Below are positions 19,329-36,169 of a DNA stretch of 64,000 bases, in pieces. The translations under genes and the position numbers were made by a program. This DNA is from Schmidtea polychroa (Eukaryota), in the NCBI GenBank assembly GCA_044892525.1, contig CM097885.1:162564001-162628000 (forward strand), given 5' to 3'. The stretch's first letter is position 1, and each line of letters opens with the position of its first letter. The notes under the pieces are model-generated. The model was not told where the DNA came from. It saw only the letters and a list, made by a program, of their open reading frames with translations, and ran no database searches.

Positions 19329-19773
19329 TACTAAATTTATATTTAAAATGTTAGTGTAAATTATATAATTTAATTTTAATTGTATTTTTAAATTGCATAT
19401 ATTTTGAATATTAATAAATTAATTTTTATTTCTATTGTCTAATTTCATCAATAAGTTTAAAAAGTCTAACTGATAATAAATTAATTTCTTATTTACAATT
19501 ATTTTATAAATTATAAATTATATTATTATATTATATTAAATTATATTAATATAATATAATAATATAAAAATAATATAAAATTTAATTATATTAAATTATA
19601 TTAAAATATATTAAATTATATTATTATAAATTATTATGAATTTACTACGATTCATTTAATTTTTTTGATTGAAAAGGATAATATATCTAATAATTAATAT
19701 TTTAAATTATCTTTTGTGATAATTATTTTCGAAATTGAAATATTTAGTGTAAAATAAATTTAAATAATAAATT

Positions 19774-21016
19774 AGTAGGTAGATAGTGGCCTACGGGAAC
19801 AATTACCCCCCCCCCCCCCCGGGGGGGGGGGGGGGGTTTGTTCCCAAATTTTTATTACGCAATTGTTCCCAACTCATTTTTTTGCTTTCAGGGATTTTTG
19901 GTCCAAATTTTTTTTTATCACACTATAGTGAGAGGGTCTTGATGGTCCTGGGAATTTCTATACAAAAATCCGACTACCACTAAAAAAGCCAAGGATTATT
20001 CACACTATAGTGAGGGGGTCTCGATGGTCCTGGGATTTTCAATACAAATAAAATTTTTTCTATACAAAAATCCGACTACCACTAAAAAAGCCAAGGATTA
20101 TTCACACTATAGTGAGGGGGTCTCGATGGTCCTGGGATTTTCAATACGAAAAATTTTTTTCTATACAAAAATCCTACTATCAATAAAAAAGCCAAGGATT
20201 TATCACGCTATAGTGAGGTGAGTCTCCTTGGTCCTGAGAAATAGGTGGTCTACACTAAAAAACGTGGTAAATTTTTCAATTACAGTAAATTACGGTCCAA
20301 ATTTTTCAATTAAAGTAAATAATGGTTCTAAAAATTAAATTAAAGTTAATTATGGCTCAAATTTTTCAAATAAGGTAATTATGGTTCTAAAAAATTAAAT
20401 TAAAGTTAATTATGGCTCAAATTTTTTAATTAAAGTAAATAATGGTTCTAAAAATTAAATTAAAGTAAATTATGGTTCTAAAATATTAAATTACAGTAAA
20501 TTATGGTCCAGATTTTTCAATTAAAGTAAATAATGGTTCTAAAAATTAAATTAAAGTTAATTATGGCTCAAATTTTTCAATTACAGTAAATAATGGTTCT
20601 AAAAATTAAATTAAAGTAAATTAAGGTTCTAAAAAATTAAATTAAAGTTAATTAAGGTCTAAATTTAAAATTAAGTAATCAATGGTAAAAAATTTTAAAT
20701 AAGTAATAATTTTTAAATAAGTAAATTAAAGTAATAATTTTTAAATAAGTAAATTAAAGTAATGTAATAAGTAAATTAAAGTAAGATTTTAAAATTTATT
20801 AACAAAAAGTTGAAGGTGTTTGAGAATTGAAATTTTTTAATGGAAATTTTTATGAAATATTTTTTTAAGTAATTTTTAATGGAAATTTTTATGAAATATT
20901 TTTCAATGATAATTTTAGATGGAAATTTTTAAGATAACTTTTAATGAAAATTTTTATGAAATATTTTTCAAAGTCAAATGAAAATTTTAACGAAATAATA
21001 ATAAAAATAATAATAA

Positions 21017-21069
<53 letters not shown>

Positions 21070-21148
21070 TATCGACCAAATACATAAAAATGAACTAGAC
21101 ACATAAAACACAAACAATTAACAAATGTAAAGATATAAAATTTATTCA
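19774..21148 (+). repeat. Left TIR of the Polinton (1375 bp) with internal tandem arrays
   Basis: Reverse complement of 34332-35984. Contains a C15G16 hairpin, ~80-105-bp CACTATAGTG repeats, ~30-bp AT-rich repeats and an (ATA)n tract. Confidence 0.92.
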
Positions 21149-21154
21149 ATAAAA

Positions 21155-24100
21155 TTAGTCCTCATCGGACAAAATAACGTCATCGATATCGATGTCATCT
21201 TCTTCATTAAATTCTTCCTCATCTTCTCCAAAATCTTCATTTAATTCTTCCTCATCTTCTCCATCATTTTCTCCATCATTTTCTCCATCATTTTCTGAAA
21301 CATTTTCTGCAACAATTTCTCCAACATTTTCTCCAATATTTAATTCACTTAATCTTACATGCCCATATGCAAGACTAGCGTTTTTCCCCACCCAAACCCT
21401 TTTGTCATCTTTGTTTGTTAGTGCTATTTTTGTGTTTTTAATTGTAAAAATTTGATGATTTTTGCTTGTTATTTTAGTCTGAGGAACCGAAAAAATCTGG
21501 TTAGTGTTATAACAATCCAGGTATGACTGATGTTTTATGTCACTACCTTTCAATGTTACACCTTTAGCCTTTTTTGTTTCCTCATCACCCAACAAGCTAT
21601 AACATTTAGGTCTAAGAAAAACCCACTCCTTATATTTAAGACCTTTATTCTCGTCTTTGAACTTTCCAATGACTGAATCAAGGTTCTTACTATATAAGGA
21701 ATGACAACTATTGTAATTGGAAGTATCTAATAAATTATCTCGAATCATTGCAGGTAAAAGAACCTCAAGTTTGCAGTTAATGACTTCGAGGAAAAAAGAA
21801 TCTGTATCACCTGCAACGATATTAATTTTACAATTAAACTCATTGCGAAATGATTCCAGATCCTTATATTGCAATTCATACATTCTAAGTTTAGATAGAT
21901 CAAGTACAGATTGACCAATGTAACTCGGTCTATCTAAACATATAGAATCTGAATTCAATAGTGTTGCAATTAAATTATCAGCTATTTTAATAGATTTTTT
22001 AAAAGTCGGTTTTGACGAATATTTAACTAATTTACCGGCAGTTGTACAAAGACGAAGATTCATTCTTCTCTTTAAATTTTCAACTGTTTTGCCGTATAAA
22101 CTGTTATTTAGCAATTTATAATAATTTTTATCTAAGTTATTTACGCTTTTTGATCTTAATTCGGTATTTGTATCTATATATTTTTTAAAAATTGGTGATT
22201 GCTTAAATCTTACACCTCTATTTACATGTGTTACTTTAACACCAAGTTCTAAATATAATTTTAATAATCTCCAATGAATAACATAATTAGATTTTGGAAG
22301 ATGAGTTAATAATAATTTTTCAACCTTAGACCCAGCAGGTTTCATTTTTTCAGCAGCTACAGGGAAATCATCCAACTTATCATGAAGCTCAGAAGGAATT
22401 ACAAGATCAACTTCAAGTGTGTATCCATAAGACAAAGATTCAAGATTTAAATTCCTACATTCATCCAGTATTTTATCAAATCCATCAAGAACCCAACAAA
22501 ATTCGCCACAAGGTAATGATTGACTTAAAGCCCACCCATAAAGATTATTAATATCTATATAAAGTAACTCGGTGTTCTCGTCGGTTTTTACGTAATGCTT
22601 ATTCACAAAAGTAAGACCGCCTCTTATTCCACCCTCATAAAAGCTAAACATTTCGTTTTCAGTTATGAGTTCAATTGGTTCATTTAAAGACATTAATGCA
22701 GAAGACCAAGACATGCCTGGAATTCCGAAATAATTCAAAGGTTCTAATCTATTGTGAGCAATTGATTTCAACCTAAACTGATGAAAGAAATCAGCCAAAA
22801 GAAAACAATCAAGTTTTAGGTAGATCATCATATAATCTAATAAAGTTCTGCAATTAGATTCTACCCAAATCTCCTGAGCTTTTTCATACTCAAGCTCAGT
22901 GACACCCTCCCAGATTGGTGGTAATTCATACGTAGTTTGTAGAACATCTAAAGAAGTGGCGAAATTATAAGGGAAGATTCCTTTTTCACCTACTATGGTG
23001 CCAGAAAAAGCAGAATTAGTAAAAGGCAAAGAATTCAAAGTTTTGACTGCTTTAGCCAAAGAATCATTGACAAATTGATATGAATCAATGAATCTTATGC
23101 TAATTTTGCCTAAATGAGCAATCAAAGATATAAATTTTTCCGTAGTTATTGGGATGCACCCTAAATTCCAATTTTTAAATTTATTTAATCCATATTTAAG
23201 TATATGATGCATATCGTATCCCTTCAAGTTGTGAAATACGATAGGCAAAATTTTATTTATTTTTCTATTTACGTTACATGTGCTACAAGCTGCACCCAAG
23301 TATTTGCCCGTAAAATGATCGTGATCTCTAACAGGATCCACGATAGATTTCAAACAAAGATAACAAACCGTTGAATTAATGAATTGTTGTTGCTCAATTT
23401 TAGTTAATTTAATCATTGGTTTCCTACCCATTTTATAATAAAAAGGAAGAACCTTATTTAATGCTATATCCTCTATAGCACTTAAAAAACTCTCGACGCA
23501 ATCTAAACCTATAAACTGTTGATAGGATTTAGATCCGTCAAAGTTATTTACTAGTAAAAGACCAGCAGATATTGGCATGTGTCGCTGAAAATGAACATTA
23601 TCACAAGGTAAAATAGCCTCAAAATCGGCATAAACTACGAAAGGAGGAGTTACTGTTTTCGACCAGTCAGTAAACTGTAAGAATTTATTTTCAGGGAAAG
23701 TATAAAGAGTAGTTCCTAATTGATTGCGTTTGCATAATATTTCATGTTTTTCTAGTGCGTTTCTGTTGTTAAAACCATTCAAACAACGATGACACCATAT
23801 TGATCGTATGCGTGTAGGACAACTAGTGTTTATGTGGCAATTCAGTAACCTATTTAAATTGCTTATAGCAATGTAATGGAAATTGTTCCCTTTATTTAAT
23901 AATAGTAAATTAATTACTGTTCCATTTAAAACTTTGGAACGATGTATAATGTCTAAATGGGGGTGTTTTAAAACGTAATTATCTGTTAATTGTTTGTTAT
24001 TGTCATAAGAAAAAACATTAATTATTAAACCAGGATTTTTGGCCTCGAATTTTCTAATATCTTTTAATTTCATTGGTAAGTCTAATGGATTATATATTAA

Positions 24101-25351
24101 CTCAGATAAATTATAACTGGATGTTCTATTTCTATATTGTTTAATAACTTCATCATATTTTAAAATAGCTAAAATGCTATATAAAAAACACGAATCGTCG
24201 GTGTTTTTTACATTAATTAAACAATATTTATTTTTTAGACAAGTAGGTAGTTCAATGAAACTCCTACCACTTAATCTACTTAGCCTACTTATCTTTGTTA
24301 TGGTGAAGTGGATTTCAGTTATTTTTTTTATGATCCAACTACTTCCTAACTCTGTGATATTACTTATTTTCTCGTTTAGTTCCCTAATGCCTTCGTCAAA
24401 AAATGAGGCAGTTAAAGGTTTTGCGTAATTCGAAATATTATTAACCTTTATTTCCCCGTCTTTTTCAAATTCGATTGTTATTCCGAATTGAATTTTGACG
24501 GAGCCTAATTCGTTAATAATATCTCGTAATTTTATAATTAATTGTTCTGGAAATATTATTTCCTTTATATTCAAGTTACTTGTATTTAGACTTAAAATTT
24601 GATGTGTACCCCTTAAATCTTTTTGTACTATGGGTACATTACCTCCTATTTGTACATTAGTAGTCGAAGAGTCGAGTGAAAGATTATCAAATTCATTATT
24701 GGGTTCGCCTACATCCCAAGAGTCGAGTGAAAGATTATCAAATTCATTATTGGGTTCGCCTACATCCCAAGAGTCGAGTGAAAGATTATCAAATTCATTA
24801 TAGGATTCATCAACTAATCCGACCTGGGATTCAACAAAAGGCAATCCATCATTGGATTCAGCAAAAGACAATCCATCATCGGATTCAGCAAAAGACAATC
24901 CATCATTGGATTCAGCAAAAGACAATCCAACATTGGATTCAGCAAAAGGCAATCCATCATTGGATTCATCAACTAATCCGACCTGGGATTCAACAAATGT
25001 ATTTAATTTAATTTTTTTATTAGTAGTATTTATTTCAATAGTTGAAGGACGTTTAAAAATAACATCTTTTTTAGAATTGAACCTATCTAAATGTTGTTTA
25101 TGCTTATTATAAAAAACGCTATATGTTAAGGGCTCGCTAATCTTACATATGGGGCATATAAAAAAAGTTTTATTATAGTATTTTTTAGAATAATAATTCT
25201 CCATTATAGAATGGCAATTATTATGTTCTTTCGACGAACAATAATTTGGATAAAGTATACCTAAAATATATACATTTAAAAATTTGGCTAAAACATTTGA
25301 TAAAAATAATACTATTAAAATTTTCTTATAATTTTGCATGTATGCATCCAA
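21155..25351 (-). CDS. Protein-primed family B DNA polymerase (pPolB) with N-terminal extension
   Basis: Exo motifs YADFEA, FHNLKGYD, YLKLDC; Pol motifs DINNLYG, KLLNNSLYGK, GDTDS. Also an EndoVII-like CYLC...DHDHFTG...CxxCN insert and a C2H2-like CHRC...HEILC. Confidence 0.96.
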   Translation of the reverse strand: MDAYMQNYKKILIVLFLSNVLAKFLNVYILGILYPNYCSSKEHNNCHSIMENYYSKKYYNKTFFICPICKISEPLTYSVFYNKHKQHLDRFNSKKDVIFKRPSTIEINTTNKKIKLNTFVESQVGLVDESNDGLPFAESNVGLSFAESNDGLSFAESDDGLSFAESNDGLPFVESQVGLVDESYNEFDNLSLDSWDVGEPNNEFDNLSLDSWDVGEPNNEFDNLSLDSSTTNVQIGGNVPIVQKDLRGTHQILSLNTSNLNIKEIIFPEQLIIKLRDIINELGSVKIQFGITIEFEKDGEIKVNNISNYAKPLTASFFDEGIRELNEKISNITELGSSWIIKKITEIHFTITKISRLSRLSGRSFIELPTCLKNKYCLINVKNTDDSCFLYSILAILKYDEVIKQYRNRTSSYNLSELIYNPLDLPMKLKDIRKFEAKNPGLIINVFSYDNNKQLTDNYVLKHPHLDIIHRSKVLNGTVINLLLLNKGNNFHYIAISNLNRLLNCHINTSCPTRIRSIWCHRCLNGFNNRNALEKHEILCKRNQLGTTLYTFPENKFLQFTDWSKTVTPPFVVYADFEAILPCDNVHFQRHMPISAGLLLVNNFDGSKSYQQFIGLDCVESFLSAIEDIALNKVLPFYYKMGRKPMIKLTKIEQQQFINSTVCYLCLKSIVDPVRDHDHFTGKYLGAACSTCNVNRKINKILPIVFHNLKGYDMHHILKYGLNKFKNWNLGCIPITTEKFISLIAHLGKISIRFIDSYQFVNDSLAKAVKTLNSLPFTNSAFSGTIVGEKGIFPYNFATSLDVLQTTYELPPIWEGVTELEYEKAQEIWVESNCRTLLDYMMIYLKLDCFLLADFFHQFRLKSIAHNRLEPLNYFGIPGMSWSSALMSLNEPIELITENEMFSFYEGGIRGGLTFVNKHYVKTDENTELLYIDINNLYGWALSQSLPCGEFCWVLDGFDKILDECRNLNLESLSYGYTLEVDLVIPSELHDKLDDFPVAAEKMKPAGSKVEKLLLTHLPKSNYVIHWRLLKLYLELGVKVTHVNRGVRFKQSPIFKKYIDTNTELRSKSVNNLDKNYYKLLNNSLYGKTVENLKRRMNLRLCTTAGKLVKYSSKPTFKKSIKIADNLIATLLNSDSICLDRPSYIGQSVLDLSKLRMYELQYKDLESFRNEFNCKINIVAGDTDSFFLEVINCKLEVLLPAMIRDNLLDTSNYNSCHSLYSKNLDSVIGKFKDENKGLKYKEWVFLRPKCYSLLGDEETKKAKGVTLKGSDIKHQSYLDCYNTNQIFSVPQTKITSKNHQIFTIKNTKIALTNKDDKRVWVGKNASLAYGHVRLSELNIGENVGEIVAENVSENDGENDGENDGEDEEELNEDFGEDEEEFNEEDDIDIDDVILSDED

Positions 25352-25406
25352 TCAAAATTAATTATTTGCTATAAATGATAATTTAATGAAATAAATTTAA
25401 CAAAAA

Positions 25407-25839
25407 ATGTCTACTATAAATAGTATCCTATTAGAAGAAAATAGTACATCAGTTATAGGTATGGTATGTAAACCTCCTATTCAATTCCTTCAATATAATA
25501 TGTACTATTTGAAATATCCTATTACTTATTCGTTCAAGGTAATTTTTTATTTAATTATTTAATATTAATTTGTTATAGGAACCAGTTAATTTAAAAACAT
25601 GTCAATTCAATATTCAAATTGGAGATATTGGGGAAGAAGATAGAAAAAATCTTGGAGAAATTCTTAAATTAATTAATAAAGAAATGATTTTTAATGAAAA
25701 ATTTACATTTATCAATTGTGAAAAAGGGTGTAAATTAGACGAAGATAAAAAATCAAAAGTGCGAATACTTATTCAAGGAGTCAAGATAAATGGAGTTATA
25801 ATTAAACCAATTTGGAAAATTACAAATGTTTTTGAATAA
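25407..25839 (+). CDS. Spliced 130-aa ORF, possible OB-fold ssDNA-binding protein (exons 25407-25538, 25579-25839)
   Basis: ATG 25407; 40-nt phase-0 intron GTAATT...TTATAG (25539-25578); exon 2 open for 87 codons to TAA inside AATAAA. The SSB call rests only on the C-terminal KVRILIQGVKINGVIIKPIWKI strand pattern and its position next to pPolB. Confidence 0.7.
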
Positions 25840-25914
25840 ATATTTAAGTGTTATTTTAAATGTTGTTGAAAAAAATTTTAAAGTTAATAAGTATTTAATA
25901 AGGGTCAGATTATT

Positions 25915-26945
25915 ATTAAAGAGTACTGCATGCTCACTGCAGACTATTATGTAGCTACGTGCTCACTGTAGACTACATTATTATATTAAAGAGTACTGCA
26001 TGCTCACTGCAGACTATTATGTAGCTACGTGCTCACTGTAGACTACATTATTATCATTATAAAAAAAATTTGCGAGGGATTTCCCCTTATTTCAAAATAA
26101 ATATCATTAATAATAATTTCATTATAAAATATTATTTAAAAATGTTAATAATTTCATCATTATAAAAAAATTTTACGAGGGATTTCCCCTTATTTCAAAA
26201 TAAATATCATTAAAAAATAACATTAATAATAATTTCATTATAAAATATTATTTAAAAATGTTAATAATTTCATCATTATATAAAAAAAAATTTTTACGAG
26301 GGATTTACCCTTATTTCATTATAAAATTTTATTTAAAATATTAGTAAAATATTAGATTATAAAAAATGAGTGAATTTCCTCTTAAGATCAAATAAAATTT
26401 TATTAAAAAATTATATAAAAATATCATTAATAATCATTAAAAAATATTAGTAATTTCATCTTATAAAATTTTATAAAAAATTGATAAAAATACTTACATT
26501 TGACATTTTTGTTCATAGTTTCATTCATTTCAGAATTTTTGTTCATTTTCATAGTTTTTTAGTTTCAATCTTTTTTATCTAAAAAATAATTAAATTTTAA
26601 TAATTAAAAAATAAAATTCTTACAATCCTTGGTACTAGCAAATTATGAGCAAATTTTAAAAACAAATCATTTATATACTTCTTCTTCTACTTAATACATT
26701 ACGTAATAATTAAAGGATTAAATTTGATACCATGCGTAATAATTAAAAGATTAAATAACTTACATAATAATTAAAGGATTAAATAACTTGCATAATAATT
26801 AAAGGATTTAATACCTTACATAATAATTAACTTAATTAAAGATTTAGTTTAATAATCAACTAAAATTTAAATTTTAATAATCAATTATATTGAATTAATA
26901 ATCAACTAAAAATTTATTGAAATAATCAGCTAAAATTTATTGAAA
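25915..26945. repeat. Non-coding repeat-array spacer inside the Polinton
   Basis: 2 x 70-bp unit (25921, 25991); 3 x GAGGGATTT(C/A)CCCTTATTTC units (about 26074, 26177, 26298); ~28-bp TAATAATTAAAGGATT array (26700-26830); AATAATCAACTAAAATTT repeats. Confidence 0.8.
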
Positions 26946-26966
26946 ACAACTTTTTATTATAAAAAT

Positions 26967-27345
26967 TTATTTCATTGACTTTAACCAAGCCAAACAATGT
27001 TGTCCACATGTTTTTGTTATAGGGTTTTGGTAACGTATTCGATTGTATTCAATCGGCATTGACATTGATTGTAGTTTATTGATTAATATAGGTGGATAAT
27101 AGAATCCCATTGGATCAAATGCATATATTTTGTCTGGTTTCACGTATACTGCAAGCCAATGTTCACCATTCAGATTAGCAGATTGAGTATTTACAATTAT
27201 TGCTTTGTTGACATCTAAATAAGGTATTTTGTCTAATGGGAAAACACCTAGAAATTCTTTTCCTAGTAATTTTCTTCCGATAACATGTATCTGAATAGAA
27301 CTAAATTAATAATAATTAAATAATTTAAATTAATTCTTACTTCAT
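26967..27345 (-). CDS. Adenain-type cysteine protease (PRO), spliced: exon 1 27345-27341 (ATGAA), exon 2 27300-26967; 112 aa
   Basis: Removing the 40-nt GTAAGA...TTTAG intron (27340-27301) gives MNSIQIHVIG...FLGVFPLD...IVNT...GEHWLAV...FDPMG...Q...TCGQHC, with the His, Asp, Gln and Cys catalytic motifs. Confidence 0.92.
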
Positions 27346-27379
27346 ATTTGATTAATTGATTTTCGATATTTGGTTTATA

Positions 27380-28603
27380 TTATACCAAAACAGTACGAGT
27401 AGATGTAATTTGAATTTCTTTTTCAAAAACTCCATATACGATTACAGAAACAGCTTCAGTAAGTGAAGATGCGAATTTAATATCTAATCGCAAATTTCCA
27501 CTTTGTGGTAACTGACTTTGATGAAGATCAAAATCTGGTGCCAATACGAATGTAAAGAATGGATACTTGCTCTTAAAATCAGACATGGTGATACCACAAT
27601 TCATATTTTTATTTAGATAACCCATATTTCTAATAATCGATTGCATATAACTTGTACTATAATCATCATTCTCAAAATCTTGACTATATTTTTCGCGATA
27701 ATCACTTCCTTTACTTAAAGTTATGGACTTGACATTAAAGTGATCAAATAAAGAAAATGATTCTGAAAACGATCCACTAAATCTTTTACTAGATTGAAAT
27801 GCAACAAGTATAAAATTAGGTAATCGTCTATCTCCAAATATTTGTTCTTTATAAAAAGAGGAAGAACCAATAGGTAATGAGAAATCAACAACTTCTTTGC
27901 TTCTTAAAGGATAAATTGCATTTTTGGTAGACAGACCAATTTGATGTCCTGCCAAAACCGATGGTTCAACACGAACTCTTCTAACCATTAATTTTGCGTC
28001 TAATAATAAAATTTTCGGTTCAATTTTCGCACAAGTTAAACTAAGTGTTGGATTTGATCTTGTTAATTTAATTTGAACACTAACACCTGGTAGTAAATAT
28101 TTAGGTTGATCAAAGAAATCAAATTGAAGTGGGGAACATAAAGAAAAGGATTTTGATTTTTCAATCCATGTTTTTCTCGTAAGATCTTTGTTAGTATACC
28201 CCATTCCACCTAAAGATGTTCGTTTAGTATCTCCGTCATAATTTATAAGTGTTTCAATTAATGCTTTGTGGGCAAATCTATCATTTGATCCTTCAACTTT
28301 GATTGAATTAAAAATTAATTCAACATCTTTAAAAAGGGTTTGGAAGAAGAAATTATTTGGAATTACTTCTGATTCGCCTAAATTCTCACCTAAATTATTA
28401 ACAACTTTCAATTGAATATATAACAAAGTATCATTCAAATCTAAATATTCAGTCTGCGATCCATTTATGTAAAATTGAATCGAAGAAGAACCGGCATCTG
28501 TAATTGAATTTCTTGGGTATACATCTTCAAATGCTCCATGTTCAATCACTGCTTGGGGAGAAGGTCTATCAAAAAGACATAATTCTGATTTAGCACTAAT
28601 CAT
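27380..28603 (-). CDS. Major capsid protein (double jelly-roll, Polinton PY/hexon-like)
   Basis: KSELCLF N-terminus, YLDLNDTLLY, QFDFFDQPKYLLPGVSVQIKLTRS and GNLRLDIKF; 407 aa; sits in the structural block. Confidence 0.9.
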   Translation of the reverse strand: MISAKSELCLFDRPSPQAVIEHGAFEDVYPRNSITDAGSSSIQFYINGSQTEYLDLNDTLLYIQLKVVNNLGENLGESEVIPNNFFFQTLFKDVELIFNSIKVEGSNDRFAHKALIETLINYDGDTKRTSLGGMGYTNKDLTRKTWIEKSKSFSLCSPLQFDFFDQPKYLLPGVSVQIKLTRSNPTLSLTCAKIEPKILLLDAKLMVRRVRVEPSVLAGHQIGLSTKNAIYPLRSKEVVDFSLPIGSSSFYKEQIFGDRRLPNFILVAFQSSKRFSGSFSESFSLFDHFNVKSITLSKGSDYREKYSQDFENDDYSTSYMQSIIRNMGYLNKNMNCGITMSDFKSKYPFFTFVLAPDFDLHQSQLPQSGNLRLDIKFASSLTEAVSVIVYGVFEKEIQITSTRTVLV

Positions 28604-28998
28604 TTTTCAAAGATGGTACCATATCCTTTCATTCTTTTGTTTATATGTTTCTTCATAATTTTTCGGCGTTTAAGTATTCCGCCTTTTTGTTCTTTATCAT
28701 TTTTAAATACATCGGATACTTTATTAATTACTTCAGGTAAATGTTGCATCACAGCTGGTAATGATTCTTTAATTTCAGAAATTGCATTTGATTTTAAAGC
28801 AGGCAAGATATTTGCATTGTTATTTATTACGTCATTAGCTGTTTTCATACCAAAATTTCCTATTCGTCTAAGAATTGGGAGTGCAAATCTACCTATTGTC
28901 TTCAACCAACCGGTTCCATATTGTTTACCAACAAAATATGGTAAATCACCACCCGATTGGTTACTACTATAAAAATGTATTATGTCAGGATTACTCAT
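28600..28998 (-). CDS. Small virion-associated protein with amphipathic segment (pVI/pX-like)
   Basis: QSGGDLPYFVGKQYGTGWLKTIGRFALPILRRIG pattern as in small conserved Polinton ORFs; basic C-terminus. Confidence 0.7.
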   Translation of the reverse strand: MSNPDIIHFYSSNQSGGDLPYFVGKQYGTGWLKTIGRFALPILRRIGNFGMKTANDVINNNANILPALKSNAISEIKESLPAVMQHLPEVINKVSDVFKNDKEQKGGILKRRKIMKKHINKRMKGYGTIFEK

Positions 28999-30007
28999 TT
29001 ATTTTACGAAAATGTAATGTCAAGTATGTTTTATCTTCTTTTCCAAATATATATTTTCCACTATCATCTCGTATATTGATTTCTATATTGTTTATATATG
29101 AAGACGATACAGGTAAGTACATTGGATTCTTTTCAATTATTTGTACTAAATCATCTTTTTTATGTTTTTCCACCCAAATACATTTCAAAAGAGGGACCAA
29201 TGTATCACCAACAATAATAGGTTCGATAATATTTGTATAGATCATCAATTGTTGATTGCGTTGTAATACTTCAGGTTCTTTAAAACCAATAATAAGTTTG
29301 TCAGTATATGCTTCTTCTAATAATCCTAAACTATTGGCTAAAAATTTACTAAATTGAACTTTACTGACATCATCATCCATTACAATTTTAACGATTTTTC
29401 CTTTTTGAATATCAACAGATTTAAATGGACGAGGATAAAAGAGTGATAGTTGATCATTTATTTGTGAAAGATCTGTAATGATATTTTCTTCGAATGTATC
29501 TGTATACTCGACATCGTAATAATATTGTATAGTTAATCGAATTGTATCAAACTTTATTTTTCGATTATTTGGAGGAATAGTGATTTGGTTCAAGGCTTTT
29601 TTAAAAGTTATTTCTTTTTCTGAAAATCCCAATTTTTGCGCTTCTTTAATACTATCGAATTCTACTTTAAAAGGAAAATATTTACAATTAATGTTCAATG
29701 TATTTCCATCAATATATATTAAATAAAATGGAGAGTCGTGACTGATTGTATATTCATTTTTTTCTTGGTTAAAGTAAAAGTATTCATAACTTGTATGTAA
29801 TACACTTTTACTATATTTGACATTTGAATTACTGTAAAAAGGAAAATAATTATACACAAAGGTAAAGTCCATGAGAGCTACTTCCCATTCACCATCCAAG
29901 TAAATAGGATTTTGAAATTCGACATTAAATTTACCAGCTTCATTATTTGGATGAGTCTGAGGACAACTATTAGAAGGTAAATTCACATAAAAATCTTTTT
30001 TAATCAT
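28991..30007 (-). CDS. Minor capsid protein (penton-like), paralog B
   Basis: FYVNLPSNS...FQNPIYLDGEWEVAL N-terminus; IYTNIIEP...VPLL...NPMYLPV...NIEINIRDDSG...LTLHFRK C-terminus. Confidence 0.88.
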   Translation of the reverse strand: MIKKDFYVNLPSNSCPQTHPNNEAGKFNVEFQNPIYLDGEWEVALMDFTFVYNYFPFYSNSNVKYSKSVLHTSYEYFYFNQEKNEYTISHDSPFYLIYIDGNTLNINCKYFPFKVEFDSIKEAQKLGFSEKEITFKKALNQITIPPNNRKIKFDTIRLTIQYYYDVEYTDTFEENIITDLSQINDQLSLFYPRPFKSVDIQKGKIVKIVMDDDVSKVQFSKFLANSLGLLEEAYTDKLIIGFKEPEVLQRNQQLMIYTNIIEPIIVGDTLVPLLKCIWVEKHKKDDLVQIIEKNPMYLPVSSSYINNIEINIRDDSGKYIFGKEDKTYLTLHFRKINE

Positions 30008-31025
30008 TTATTTTACGAAAATGTAATGTCAAGTGTGTTTTTGTATCTCTACTAAATTTTATTAATTTTCCACTATCATCTCGTATATTGATTTCAATGT
30101 TGTTTATAGAAGAATTAGAAATTGGTAGATACATTGGATTCTTCATTTCTAGTTGCACAATTTCTCCTTGTTCATATTTTTTTATCCAAATAGATTTCAA
30201 TAACGGAACTCTTACATCTCCAACAGTCAATGGTTCGATAATATTTGAGTAAATAAACATTTGTTGATGATGATTAAATAACTTTGGAATTTTTGTTCCA
30301 ATAATTTCTTTCTCTGTAAATGTTTGTTTCTTTAATCCCAATGTTTTTGTTAAATTTTTATCAAAGGTTATTGATGAAATGTTATCAGCAAGACTTATTT
30401 TAACCAATTCATTATTTTGTATTTTTAAATCTTTAAAGGGAGACGGATTAATTGTCATTAACTGACCATGTATTTCAGATAAAGTATTGATGTATAATTC
30501 ATCTTCGAAATAATGTTCAAATTTTGTTTTTTCAACAACACTTATAATTATACCAAATTGATCAATTGTTTTATCTTCTGTAAATTTTGGTAATTTAATT
30601 CGCAAATGATCACTATCACTAATAACCGATACTGATTTTAATCCAAATTTAATAGCATGTTCAAAATCTGGAAACGTTATTTTAAATGGAACATGTGGAC
30701 AAACAACAACCAAATTCTCATATCTTTCAATGAACATGTCAACTTCAGGAGTATTTTTAGGATTTATTACTTCAAAGGTTCGATTTGAATTATTTATTCT
30801 AAAATATTTAATTTCTTCATCCATCTTTACTTTTTCATATTGTATCAATGAATTACTGTAATAAGGAAAAGTATTATACACAAAGGTAAAGTCCATGAGA
30901 GCTACTTCCCATTCACCATCCAAGTAAATAGGATTTTGAAATTCGACATTAAATTTACTAGCTTCATTATCGGGGAAAATAAGAGGACAACTATTAGAAG
31001 GTAAAATAATATAAAAATCTTTCAT
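30000..31025 (-). CDS. Minor capsid protein (penton-like), paralog A
   Basis: Same terminal motifs as paralog B; the central ~200 aa are highly divergent. Confidence 0.88.
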   Translation of the reverse strand: MKDFYIILPSNSCPLIFPDNEASKFNVEFQNPIYLDGEWEVALMDFTFVYNTFPYYSNSLIQYEKVKMDEEIKYFRINNSNRTFEVINPKNTPEVDMFIERYENLVVVCPHVPFKITFPDFEHAIKFGLKSVSVISDSDHLRIKLPKFTEDKTIDQFGIIISVVEKTKFEHYFEDELYINTLSEIHGQLMTINPSPFKDLKIQNNELVKISLADNISSITFDKNLTKTLGLKKQTFTEKEIIGTKIPKLFNHHQQMFIYSNIIEPLTVGDVRVPLLKSIWIKKYEQGEIVQLEMKNPMYLPISNSSINNIEINIRDDSGKLIKFSRDTKTHLTLHFRKIND

Positions 31026-31030
31026 AATAT

Positions 31031-32179
31031 TTATTTAATCAATTGATTTTCAGATATCCAAGATGGAGTTTCATATCCATGCCATTTAACATAGTATTGT
31101 TTATATTTACCATCTTTTTTGGTTTTTAAAATCTTTTGAATTCTAAATATTGTAGGAGCAGGAATTACTTGGAGTTCTTGTTCATAGAATTTACCAGTGA
31201 TTGGTTTGTTTTCATGATCAACTATCACATACATGACAGGATTCTGTTTTGTATCGATTTTAAAAATTTGATATACTTCATCACTCCAATTATTATCAAA
31301 GTTTTTGATGAATGGTGAAGAATTGATTTTACTAATTCTTACATGATCACCAACCTTGTATTTCGGTTTATTGATTTTTTCTGACTTTGTTTGATTTTTA
31401 GTAAAATCTGCAGGTGTTTGTCCTTTTAATCCTCTGTGTGGTGAATGATTGTAACTGAAAATAATTTTTGGCAAAACATTTATCCAAGTTTTATTACCTT
31501 GATATACAAAATATTTTTTCAAGCGTTCTCTTAAAGTTCGATTAAATCGTTCTACGTGAGCAGCTTTGAACTGAGAAAATACCGAGTAATGGTTTATTCC
31601 TTTGATAACCTCTTTAACTTTGCTGTTATAAAATTCTTTACCTAAATCATATATTTAAAAATTAATTAATTAAATTTAATTACCTAAATCCGTTTGTAAA
31701 TTAATAGGTTTACCATCTGCAAACATTTCTTTTATCGCATCAGCCATTTCATTTGCAGATTTAGTTTTTGTAGGAACAGCACGAGCATATCTATTAAAAA
31801 CATCTATACAAGTCAGAATATATTTGTACCCCTTGTTAATTTTTGAATAAGGTATCATTTCCATCAAATCCATTTGCCATACATCATTGTTTCCAATTGT
31901 TTTGTATGGTCTTGTTGGAAAACGTTTCAACATTGGTTTATTTAAACTATATGCTAATTGATTAGATAACCATTTCTGAGTTTCTTTCTTTGAATTATTC
32001 ACTCGTTTTGTTAATTTTTCTACGCCACCAAAACCATCTGGATCTTTTGGGTTTGTCCATATGGTTTTTAACTTTTTCTCTATTGTTTTCACTTTTTTCA
32101 CTTTTGTTTTCACATTTGTTTTCACTTTTGTTTTCATTTTTTCCACTTTTGTGTTGGTTTTGTGATACGTTTCCTTCAT
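31031..32179 (-). CDS. Retroviral-like (RVE) integrase with C-terminal chromodomain; exons 32179-31684 and 31641-31031; 368 aa
   Basis: WQMDL (D1). QTDLG|KEF (D2) is restored by removing a 42-nt GT-AG intron (31683-31642). VERFNRTL (E). YYVKWHGY...SWI chromodomain. Confidence 0.92.
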
Positions 32180-32248
32180 TATTACAACAAGTTGTCAAAA
32201 TATTAAAATCTACAATATTTTTATTTGGTAATGAACTCTTGATACCCA

Positions 32249-32575
32249 TTAAGAACTTAATGATGAGATTGCACTAATTGCAGATAAGACTATAGGAATT
32301 AGTGCACCCAAGAACCCTCCTTTTTGTTTATATATTATCTTTCTCATTAGACGACGATTTTTTGTATCAACTAGAGATAAAAGTGATCTTTTATGTCTTT
32401 GCAATACTAATCTTTTAGCTTTAGTTATATTTACATTACCGCGGACAACATTTATAATAACTTCAAGTAAATCATCAATAACAAATGATGGAAAAGACTG
32501 TAAAATTGATATTCGTTTCGAATTTGGTGCCTTTATTAAAGCATTAAAATATGGTAAGCTCCGTTCAAATTTCAT
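32249..32575 (-). CDS. Basic core-like protein (pVII-like Polinton ORF), 108 aa from the ATG at 32575
   Basis: EVIINVVRGNV...LQRHK...KQKGGFLGALIP pattern. The track's start at 32620 is a non-ATG codon. Confidence 0.7.
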   Translation of the reverse strand: MKFERSLPYFNALIKAPNSKRISILQSFPSFVIDDLLEVIINVVRGNVNITKAKRLVLQRHKRSLLSLVDTKNRRLMRKIIYKQKGGFLGALIPIVLSAISAISSLSS

Positions 32576-32604
32576 TATTATTATTAATTTACGCGACGGT
32601 TTGT

Positions 32605-32757
32605 TTATAATTTGATCCACTTCTTGATTTGTTTCTTAGTTTTTGTAGTTTTTGTACCTTTTGATCCACTTTTTGTTTTCTTTGTACGTTTTGTTTTCTT
32701 GGTAATTTTCTTCGAAACACTTGGAAGATTTTTAACAACTACTTTTTTAAATGACAT
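32605..32757 (-). CDS. 50-aa Lys-rich basic protein (candidate DNA-condensing protein)
   Basis: MSFKKVVVKNLPSVSKKITKKTKRTKKTKSGSKGTKTTKTKKQIKKWIKL: 19 Lys, 1 Arg, no acidic residue. Fills the gap between the ATPase and core-like genes. Confidence 0.65.
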   Translation of the reverse strand: MSFKKVVVKNLPSVSKKITKKTKRTKKTKSGSKGTKTTKTKKQIKKWIKL

Positions 32758-32776
32758 GATTAATTTTATTTAGTTT

Positions 32777-33400
32777 TTAGTTTTGTTTATAAATCGTAAC
32801 ACCGTTTATATTAAAAATATCAGTTCTAATACGCATATCATCTGGACATTGTTGTGTAAAATCAAAAAATAAATATCCATGAGGAATTTTTGTTGCATCT
32901 TGGAATGAATCAATCAAAAATTTTCTATTATTTGGATAAGCTTGTCTTGCAAGAAAATCTATTATTGTTTGATCTCTAGGATTTTTGAAAATAATTAAAT
33001 ATTGGACATTTAAATTACGTGTTCTATGACTTCCACCTTGATGAAAAAGATTTTGTGTAATGAAAATAACTGTAACTCCACAATGTCTACTGATTTTTGT
33101 AAATAAATTATTAAAATCTTTTTCTTTATTTGCTTCCTGGTACAGATCATCGATAATAATAACATCACCTTGACGTAATCTAGATGACCAATTTTTATCA
33201 AATCCTTTAATTATTGTCATTTTTAATTTACAGAAACTGTTTTGAGTCAATCCATGTTCTTCATCTGCACCTCGATGCCAATATATTTTATTAAATTTAG
33301 ATTTAAACATGTTTGATTGTAATAAATTACATACAAATAAAGTTTTCCCGCTTCCACTAGGTCCAACTATTTGATATACTGCGTCATTTCTTAATTCCAT
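32777..33400 (-). CDS. A32/FtsK-like genome-packaging ATPase
   Basis: Walker A GPSGSGKT, Walker B IIIDD, FTKISRH, FITQN. Confidence 0.95.
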   Translation of the reverse strand: MELRNDAVYQIVGPSGSGKTLFVCNLLQSNMFKSKFNKIYWHRGADEEHGLTQNSFCKLKMTIIKGFDKNWSSRLRQGDVIIIDDLYQEANKEKDFNNLFTKISRHCGVTVIFITQNLFHQGGSHRTRNLNVQYLIIFKNPRDQTIIDFLARQAYPNNRKFLIDSFQDATKIPHGYLFFDFTQQCPDDMRIRTDIFNINGVTIYKQN

Positions 33401-33450
33401 TTTTTAATTAAATTATTTTATTTAATTTGTTTATAATTACAATAATTAGA

Positions 33451-33927
33451 ATGATCAGCAACATTAATTATAGAGGAAGATGTGTAGTTAATGGAATGAA
33501 GTTTCCATCAGGAAAACCTCAACATGTCGTGGACAGAAGTGGAAAATATCCAATTTTATTCTTCAAGAGCGGGAAATGTAGGATAATGGGATGTAAGAAA
33601 CCATTACAGGAAGGCGATCTCAAATATCAGATTCAAGATTTACAAATCCAATCAATTACATTAACGCTAGATATGGGTACATGCATTGATTTAAATGCAT
33701 TGTCAAGGAAAACCGATAGTTACTACGAGCCTGAAATATTTCCAGCTTTACGTATTCTCAAGTATAACCCCCTATGTGTAAATGTTTTTTCAAGTGGGAA
33801 AGTTGTTATATTAGGGATTAAAACATTTGATTATTTTAATCAAATTCAAGAAATTCAGAAATTCATTAAATCATTAACTATAAATATCACAACAAATGAA
33901 GAAATATTGGAATATTTATTAAGTTAA
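33451..33927 (+). CDS. TATA-binding-protein-like protein, 158 aa
   Basis: Two TBP-like repeats: ILFFKSGKCRIMGCK and YEPEIFPALRI...NVFSSGKVVILGIK, plus SNINY and IQSITLT strands. ATG at 33451 (the track uses TTG 33427). Confidence 0.85.
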   Translation: MISNINYRGRCVVNGMKFPSGKPQHVVDRSGKYPILFFKSGKCRIMGCKKPLQEGDLKYQIQDLQIQSITLTLDMGTCIDLNALSRKTDSYYEPEIFPALRILKYNPLCVNVFSSGKVVILGIKTFDYFNQIQEIQKFIKSLTINITTNEEILEYLLS

Positions 33928-33990
33928 TTAAATTAATTTAATTAATTGTGTTTAAATTAACTGAATATCTACAATAACAAAAATTCAAAA

Positions 33991-34338
33991 ATGGATGACG
34001 ATAAGCAAGCTTACATATTCCAGACTATATTAACGAAGATGGAAGAATTGTTCCCGAATATAAAGAACAGACTTTCATATTGTGCTCCGGAATTATTAGC
34101 TTATAGAATCAAGCAATTAACTGGGATCAATATAGAAGAACTTATACGAAGACATTTCGAATCTGTACAAGAATCAAGATTTAAATGCATAGACGATTGT
34201 GAAGTATGTATGGATCCGATGAAATTACCATGTCCGTTTAGATGTAGATGCTGCCAAGAATATAAGATGAAAGAAGTTGTTCATATTTTACTAGCAGAAT
34301 TAAGAAGAGCTTATTACAAGCAAATATTGGATGAATAA
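33991..34338 (+). CDS. Cys-rich protein of unknown function, 115 aa
   Basis: ATG in A-rich context; CIDDCEVCMDPMKLPCPFRCRCC cluster; the stop falls in the AATAAA at the TIR boundary. Confidence 0.75.
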   Translation: MDDDKQAYIFQTILTKMEELFPNIKNRLSYCAPELLAYRIKQLTGINIEELIRRHFESVQESRFKCIDDCEVCMDPMKLPCPFRCRCCQEYKMKEVVHILLAELRRAYYKQILDE

Positions 34339-35984
34339 ATTTTATATCTTTACATTTGTTAATTGTTTGTGTTTTATGTGTCTAGTTCATTTTTATGTAT
34401 TTGGTTGATATATTATTTTTATTATTATTATTATTATTTTTATTATTATTATTTCATAAAAATCTTCATTAAAAGTTATCTTAAAAATTTCCATCTAAAA
34501 TTATCATTGAAAAATATTTCATAAAAATTTCCATTAAAAATTACTTAAAAAATTATTCCATAAAAATTTCTATTAAAAATTACTTAAAAAATTATTTCAT
34601 AAAAATTTTCATTAAAAAATTTCAATTCTCAAACACCTTCTATTATTTCAACTTTTTGTTAATAAATTTTAAAATCTTACTTTAATTTACTTATTACATT
34701 ACTTATTTAAAAATTATTACTTTAATTTACTTATTTAACTTTAATTTAAAATTTTTGACCATTGATTACTTAATTTTAAAATTTGGACCTTAATTAACTT
34801 TAATTTAATTTTTTAGAACCTTAATTTAGTTATTTGAGCCCATTCATTACTTTAATTTAAAAATTTGAACCATAATTTACTGTAATTCAAAAATTTGGAC
34901 CTTAATTTACTTTAATTTAATTTTTTAGAACCATAATTTACTGTAATTGAAAAATTTGGACCAATACTTACTGTAATTTAATTTTTAAGAACCATTATTT
35001 ACTTTAATTTAATTTTTTTAGACCCATAATTTACTTTAATTAAAAAATTTGAGTCATAATTTACTTTAATTTTTTACCATTATTTACTGTAATTAAATTT
35101 TTTAGAACCATTATTTACTTTAATTGAAAAATTTTGACCATTATTTACTTTAATTGAAAAATTTGAACCATAATTTACTTTAATTTTTAGAACCATTATT
35201 TACTGTAATTTAATTTTTAGGACCATTATTTACTTTAATTGAAAAATTTACCACGTTTTTTACTGTAGACCACCTATTTCTCAGGACCAAGGAGACTCAC
35301 CTCACTATAGTCTGAAAAATCCTTGGCTTTTTTAGTGTAGACCACCTATTTGTATTGAAAATATCCTGAGACCTTAAATTACCATGCTTTTTTAGTGTAG
35401 ACCAGCTTTTTGTATTGAAAATATCCCGAGACCTTAAATTACCATGCTTTTTTAGTGTAGACCACCTATTTCTCAGGACCAAGGAGACTCACCTCACTAT
35501 AGTCTGAAAAATCCTTGGCTTTTTTATTGGTAGTAGGATTTTTGTATTGAAAATCCCAGGACCATCGAGACCCCTTCACTATAGCGTGAAAATTCCATGC
35601 TTTTTAGTGGTAGTCGGATTTTTGTATAGAAATTTTTTTTTTGTATTGAAAATCCCAGGACCATCGTTTTTGTATAGAAAAAATTTTTTCGTATTGAAAA
35701 TCCCAGGACCATCGAGACCTCCTCACTATAGTGTGAATAATCCTTGGCTTTTTTAGTGTAGACCAGCTTTTTGTATTGAAAAAAATTTTTTGTATTGAAA
35801 ATCCCAGGACCATCGAGACCCCCTCACTATAGTGTGATAAAAAAATAATTTGGACCAAAAATCCCTGAGAGCAAAAAATGTGAGTTGGAACAATTGCGTA
35901 ATAAAAAGTTGGAACAATTTTACCCCCCCCCCCCCCCCCCCGGGGGGGGGGGTAATTGTTCCAGTGGGCTACTATCTACCTACT
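34332..35984 (-). repeat. Right TIR of the Polinton (1653 bp)
   Basis: Inner boundary TGAATAAATTTTATATCTTTACATTTGT matches 21121-21148 exactly; has extra repeat units around 35290-35520. Confidence 0.92.
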
Positions 35985-36169
35985 TAAATTGCTATTATTA
36001 TGGCATTAAAGGACTTTATATATTATATTTTAAAAAAATCTAATCATTATTTCTCAGTCAAATACCATTCTCAGTTTGATATGAAGTTAACAAGTGGATT
36101 ACATACTCCTTTATCAGAATAAATGTTTATCAATAACAAGTTATTACAATATTTTTATTCGTTAATAAA

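Follow-up and report, generated by a model that had tools for sequence, protein, structure and literature searches.

A short predicted intron at codon 2, and a conserved, out-of-frame candidate second acceptor, in the protease gene of a Polinton clade represented in Schmidtea polychroa

In the 64,000-nucleotide stretch of the Schmidtea polychroa genome analysed here (the window), the last gene in the structural arm of a Polinton element encodes an adenain-type protease, and this gene does not appear among the listed ATG open reading frames of at least 80 amino acids. How does the gene obtain its start codon, and does the splicing event that would supply it also govern when, or how much, protease is made? 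The first-pass annotation had proposed that ATGAA is joined across a 40-nt intron to a frame encoding a 112-aa adenain-type protease, and the coordinates, the frame and the match to Peptidase_C5 agree with this. The start codon occupies positions 27345–27343 of the minus strand, the donor GTAAGA lies at 27340 and the acceptor TTTAG ends at 27301 (Table 1). The stop-to-stop frame 26967–27305 contains 112 codons, and splicing swaps the first two residues, so that the product still has 112 aa. The proteases of relatives stop at about the same place, and 112 aa is therefore the full length.

Exon 2 alone has no ATG ahead of the catalytic His and Asp; its first in-frame ATG is codon 66, downstream of His49 and Asp64, and the unspliced reading from the upstream ATG is Met-Lys-stop, ending at codon 3. 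The earlier claims that no ATG serves the catalytic region and that the gene is absent from the ORF track are borne out. Production of the protease is predicted to hinge on one splice, as had been suggested, with no other ATG available for the catalytic region and with the intron position conserved throughout the clade. The motif ATGAAGT[AG]A occurs twice in the 128,000 bases of the two strands of the window, and a simple short-intron scan of the whole element passes seven candidates; all 12 complete metagenome loci of the intron clade nevertheless have the motif 37–43 nt ahead of the homologous AG, which exceeds chance. No sequencing run recorded as RNA contains the stretch, and contigs of four runs (X1, X2, X3 and X6), which are of uncertain kind and show presence only, have neither a joint nor a 40-base gap at the intron over 26500–28800, a result that speaks neither for nor against splicing.

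Table 1. Features of the element and of its protease gene, in window coordinates
Feature	Position	Strand	Remarks
Polinton/Maverick, 16.2 kb	19774..35984		termini AGTAG...CTACT; long imperfect terminal inverted repeats
Predicted 40-nt intron in a small plus-strand gene	25539..25578	+	
AATAAA	26953..26958	-	candidate polyadenylation signal directly 3' of the stop codon
Protease exon 2, adenain-type cysteine protease	26967..27300	-	His49/Asp64/Gln93/Cys100; PF00770, 1.4e-05
Candidate second, out-of-frame CAG acceptor	27291..27293	-	Gln5 codon, 10 nt into exon 2
Predicted phase-2 GT-AG intron, 40 nt	27301..27340	-	93% A+T; stop at codon 3 if unspliced
Protease exon 1, coding part	27341..27345	-	start codon and two bases of codon 2; conserved in intron-bearing relatives
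TATAAAC box	27373..27379	-	34 nt upstream of the protease start codon; probable promoter common to structural-arm genes
Major capsid protein gene	27380..28603	-	ends 35 nt before the protease ATG
Predicted 42-nt integrase intron	31642..31683	-	inside the T-D-x-G-x-E-F motif
TBP-like gene of the element	33451..33927	+	oriented head to head with the structural arm; lacks the TATAAAC box

The element carries the marks of a Polinton/Maverick: inverted repeats and a target-site duplication, a family B polymerase, an integrase, a packaging ATPase, a capsid protein and an adenain-like protease. The duplication, TAAATT, is 6 bp long and flanks the element at 19768–19773 and 35985–35990, and the arms of the inverted repeat lie near 19.8–21.1 kb and 34.3–36.0 kb. 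Hairpin-capable palindromes made of a C-run and a G-run are located just within both termini (19810–19836 and 35925–35950). The ATPase matches Pox_A32 in Pfam, and a pX-like gene is also present. Small basic proteins are encoded at 28600–28998 and 32249–32575 on the minus strand, and show x-x-G-G motifs and a pX-like match in Pfam; x-x-G-G is presumably a protease cleavage motif, and these proteins are possible substrates. The capsid assignment comes from Atlas features only (double-jelly-roll-like clusters, score 0.98; PF21738 on 24–30% of members). A pair of tandem paralogous genes of 338 and 341 aa (28991–31025, minus strand), near-identical at their ends and divergent in the middle, probably encodes minor capsid proteins.

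The polymerase is a 1394-aa ORF with polymerase-B-like motifs, which falls into Atlas clusters carrying PF03175 on 19–47% of members (score 0.96). A direct Pfam scan of this ORF returned only Endonuclease_7 and a phmmer search of the PDB returned no match, and the polymerase is therefore of a divergent type. A small two-exon gene of unassigned kind (25407 to about 25792, plus strand), which holds the 25539–25578 intron, is divergent from the polymerase ORF. Two further candidate short introns, 26623–26579 (45 nt) and 26497–26460 (38 nt), are found on the minus strand in the repeat-rich region upstream of the same ORF, and may be part of a spliced leader of the polymerase, comparable to the four in locus L061 (1853–2243). 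The integrase has its rve domain in exon 1 and rve_3 and Chromo in exon 2. Its intron is absent from loci L063 and L071, where the integrases are single long ORFs, and to judge from these uninterrupted genes it seems to have been gained later than the protease intron.

The protease frame was matched to Peptidase_C5 by the Pfam scan, and a profile of 29 relatives aligns to adenovirus proteases across the His, Asp, Gln and Cys residues. The predicted structure of exon 2 has a pLDDT of 92, and its best match is adenain (4piq_A, TM 0.84, E 4.9e-06), with the first helix of the model beginning at residue 3. The protease thus has the clan CE order of His, Asp/Glu, Gln and Cys and, in the model, the adenain fold. 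The likeness to adenain, the L3 protease of adenovirus (PF00770; 4piq, 1avp), consists of this aligned catalytic core and common fold; unlike adenain with its 204 residues, the window protease has 112 and lacks a C-terminal domain, and its proteolytic role here is putative.

The window family is young and abundant: 141 of the 150 scored protease hits agree at every one of the 111 residues searched (5340 candidates), and all 40 scored DNA hits are about 100% identical over 601 nt. In one place (G000:C2:102217168-102296768) at least 16 identical protease genes follow each other at a spacing of about 3.5–7 kb, which is a tandem array of an element fragment. Of 60 loci fetched in two overlapping sets, 59 yielded the upstream region, and both splice ends are kept in all 59. 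A broken remnant, with the 5' end of the protease lost or interrupted, would explain that no ATG ORF is called, but against it stand the identity of the scored copies, the splice ends kept in every locus and the intact catalytic residues; this reading is hardly credible, being largely refuted by the conservation across families.

The first-pass annotation had called for a check of other Polinton protease genes for an intron at codon 2, and the intron is found in many of them. Among 38 relatives from metagenomes, 12 loci carry ATGAA, GT[AG]A, 37–43 nt at 80–91% A+T and, at the homologous codon, an AG, four pairs of these 12 being near-copies; in one further locus (L069), which is cut off, only the acceptor is visible, and the remaining 25 lack the intron motif and possess an in-frame ATG at or close to the corresponding position. 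Sister families in the same genome, which were recovered with diverged queries after a first own-genome protein search had given only the family of the window, keep the intron position in 80 of 80 loci at 62–71% protein identity. Their introns are 36–40 nt long and differ by single bases, and most of these loci have Asp in place of Asn at codon 2. Such single-base changes in length would not be tolerated in coding DNA. The interiors of the window intron and of the introns of relatives are 0.50–0.71 alike, which is no more than shuffled sequences (0.62–0.69). The intron position is thus common to one Polinton clade, and interior and length drift freely. A scan of IMG/VR gave 12 matches to the pattern, none of which is a relative.

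These features, GT-AG ends, a fixed position and a drifting interior and length, are those of a U2 intron. Seventeen hand-picked predicted introns of host myosin genes have the same make-up and measure 42–63 nt, so that the protease intron, at 40 nt, lies just under them in length and is equal to the other introns of the element. Translation from unspliced RNA at a near-cognate codon reached by leaky scanning (ATT at codon 4 or ATA at codon 6, both in frame before His49) would dispense with splicing, but it leaves unexplained why ATG-N-N-GT[AG]A is invariant and stands at a fixed distance, why the AG is invariant too and why the length between them drifts by single bases, and the upstream ATG-stop would hinder it. 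Such initiation is very improbable. The protease intron is very probably real and required, and on comparative grounds it is very probably old.

The window, 30 of the 38 metagenome loci (near-duplicates dropped) and 16 of 28 database proteins gave 47 proteases, from which a tree was built. In it, the 11 rows that bear the intron form one side of a branch with 98/97 support, which is present in all 200 bootstrap trees, and with midpoint rooting they are nested among intronless rows. The simplest reading, though not a proven one, would be a single intron gain. Two database proteins inside the intron clade, P0005 and P0030, start with M-N-S-[VI]-Q-I, which is the predicted spliced start. They may derive from spliced RNA or from a loss of the intron, and if it was lost, the intron is dispensable. 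Most of the other database proteins from this clade open with residues translated from the intron or have a late start, and P0034 (65 aa) starts past the catalytic His, in line with the earlier remark that this protease is easily missed.

The first-pass annotation had also regarded the splice as a possible timing or regulatory switch. Maturation proteases are late functions. A switch in which the intron is retained early, giving Met-Lys-stop, and is spliced only late in the replication of the element would fit this, and in every intron-bearing copy the unspliced RNA is non-productive and the old intron has been kept. However, the intron holds no conserved interior element for a regulator, 25 relatives manage without it, and the protease is already tied to the structural genes by an upstream box that they have in common. 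This box, TATAAAC, was searched on the minus strand between 21100 and 34400, where each of the ten sites precedes, by 34–101 nt, the start codon of one of nine arm genes; a Markov null (200 sequences) gives a mean of 1.2–1.6 sites and a maximum of 6. The boxes fall within 27373–33435 of the minus strand and stand before the protease and eight other genes.

The same box is found before most arm genes of the relatives, and ATAAAC lies 31–46 nt before the protease ATG in all nine of the intron-clade loci compared. In the sister families of this genome the sequence 31–34 nt before the protease ATG is TATAAAT, not TATAAAC. The box is also present in the intronless loci L073, L079 and L089, and it is nearly absent from the distant L091, L096 and L097. 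It is more likely that the promoter box, and not the intron, sets the timing of the protease, and the TBP-like protein of the element would then set the late timing of all box-bearing genes. With transcription starting at or just behind the box, the first exon would, given the distance from box to ATG, be at most about 40 nt long and perhaps 10–15 nt. A timing switch is improbable and the corresponding claim is not supported: the splice ends resemble those of ordinary short host introns, two other genes of the element carry introns of 40–42 nt, and the protease lies behind the shared box. What is left of the claim of regulation is favoured only by a second acceptor, which points to amount and not to time.

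This second acceptor had been overlooked in the first-pass annotation, where the quoted TTCTATTCAG is itself a candidate out-of-frame acceptor, 10 nt downstream of the first. An out-of-frame YAG is found at +7, +8, +10 or +11 of exon 2 in all 11 intron-clade sequences tested (the window included and three duplicates left out), and each of the 80 loci of the sister families has one 7–11 nt into the exon. As background, 15% of other phase-2 stretches hold such a YAG, and the product of the probabilities under a synonymous-codon null, which takes the amino acids and local codon use as given, is 1.8e-6; the rows are related, so that this value overstates the significance. The homologous site has no out-of-frame YAG in any of 19 intronless relatives, and behind other short introns it occurs once in 25 (one of eight element controls and none of 17 host controls). 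Gln in the first five codons is encoded by CAG in 12 of 12 cases, 8 of them from the genome of the window, versus 10 of 93 at the remaining Gln codons of these genes, and where residues are identical between the protease genes, the codon differs in about half of the cases. Gln or Glu near the start of a helix can cap it. In the model, Gln or Glu at residue 5 may cap the first helix, which explains the residue and not the codon. Selection on the second YAG is likely.

The strengths of the two acceptors were compared with a crude matrix derived from the 17 host introns. In the window the proximal AG scores 5.6 and the distal 2.0; the proximal AG is higher in all eight metagenome loci, and the distal is higher in four of six sister families. 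Introns ending at the proximal AG measure 36–43 nt and those ending at the distal AG 46–51 nt; the latter fall inside the intron-length peak of 45–85 bp given for the planarian Schmidtea mediterranea in the accessible part of PMC13594981. According to the accessible text of the respective papers, closely placed AGs compete in mammalian assays, with CAG outranking TAG (PMC2018619), and the proximal AG is usually preferred in mammalian work (PMC9984181, PMC2018619). The frame behind the second AG is open for 8 codons in the window and for 0–31 codons across sequences, and is not conserved. The distal AG was also considered as the productive acceptor and was rejected, as offsets of +7, +8, +10 and +11 give two phases with a fixed exon 1 and no ATG follows; a fusion of the upstream gene onto the distal AG was rejected on the same two-phase offsets. 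The two AGs within about 11 nt resemble the closely spaced alternative 3' splice sites treated in the accessible parts of PMC2018619 and PMC9984181, as candidate competitors, but differ in that the distance between them is never divisible by three, that the product of the distal one is not conserved and that its use is putative.

The match of the intron ends and make-up to host introns, and the higher score of the proximal AG in most loci, would be accounted for if this were an ordinary short intron with efficient, constitutive splicing, in which the second YAG is a recognition helper, an exonic enhancer or an inherited codon and is not joined. Exon 2 opens with a pyrimidine run, a possible tract, and the accessible text of PMC2018619 describes one AG being recognised in step 1 and its neighbour being ligated, in the opposite order there. 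Constitutive splicing with a silent second YAG is the main rival reading, though rather unlikely, as equally short introns of the same elements do, with one exception, without a second YAG, as do the host controls. Against a dose-limiting role of the second YAG stands the integrase intron, which is just as short at 42 nt and has none, so that shortness alone does not make an intron inefficient.

The reading that is preferred here, by a slight balance of probability, is a host-spliced protease whose start codon stands in a 5-nt coding exon and whose amount, not timing, is limited by an out-of-frame acceptor. The first AG would lead to the 112-aa protease and the second YAG to a frameshifted short peptide, so that a fixed share of messages would be wasted and the shared promoter would yield only a small amount of a minor virion enzyme. 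That dose limiting by a fixed attenuator is the function of the second YAG is plausible, if a little on the doubtful side. Tentatively, the clade may be seen as having gained one codon-2 intron and kept the competing acceptor despite saturation of silent sites, as an attenuator that holds the protease below the capsid genes of the same virus-specific late box and could be tuned by host splicing.

The pTP and Pol genes of human adenovirus have a three-codon leader exon. Similarly, the start codons of IVa2 and pTP in turkey adenovirus lie in or across a small upstream exon, as stated in the accessible text of PMC11304566 (the available part of PMC7070027 gives background only). In both systems the host spliceosome gives, or here would give, a start codon to a viral gene, which in adenovirus serves replication or packaging; adenoviruses differ in that the introns are long and belong to large, alternatively spliced units, in contrast to a 40-nt intron behind a gene-specific box in a protease gene. 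Dinoflagellate Polinton-like proviruses carry young introners according to the accessible part of PMC11957031, and share with the window element the presence of spliceosomal introns within Maverick-like elements. Introners, however, are mostly young mobile insertions gained after integration, unlike the window intron, which appears old, is common to diverged families and has an unalignable interior.

The element is closest to animal Polintons/Mavericks (adintoviruses, PMC8502044; vertebrate, PMC8097293; nematode, bioRxiv 10.1101/2022.07.12.499685), with which it has in common the inverted repeats, the 6-bp duplication, pPolB, the rve integrase, the ATPase and the capsid, as well as an adenain-like protease beside the major capsid gene. 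Core genes are intronless in intact vertebrate and nematode Mavericks according to the accessible text of PMC8097293 and bioRxiv 10.1101/2022.07.12.499685, whereas here the protease and the integrase are split by short predicted GT-AG introns, the protease intron being inherited within the clade. The accessible parts of PMC8502044, PMC10748475, PMC11296320, PMC12220804 and PMC2836005 do not speak of spliceosomal introns in the protease of a Polinton. Among the papers searched, none deals with a protease intron conserved in Polintons; an earlier annotation in supplements, Repbase entries or subscription papers is possible.

An old, clade-wide intron in a core Polinton gene is thus very probably real. 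The conserved out-of-frame second acceptor is a new observation, a candidate dose limiter, and the one feature that points to regulation. As core genes have been described as intronless and intact copies of Polintons are often picked by uninterrupted ORFs, the protease of the intron clade is mis-called or missed. That an old intron is shared implies that a gene for virion maturation is expressed in the nucleus and spliced by the host, and it provides a dated case of intron gain within a virus-like lineage. Should the second acceptor be in use, it would show how a compact element with one type of late promoter makes a minor enzyme at low dose.
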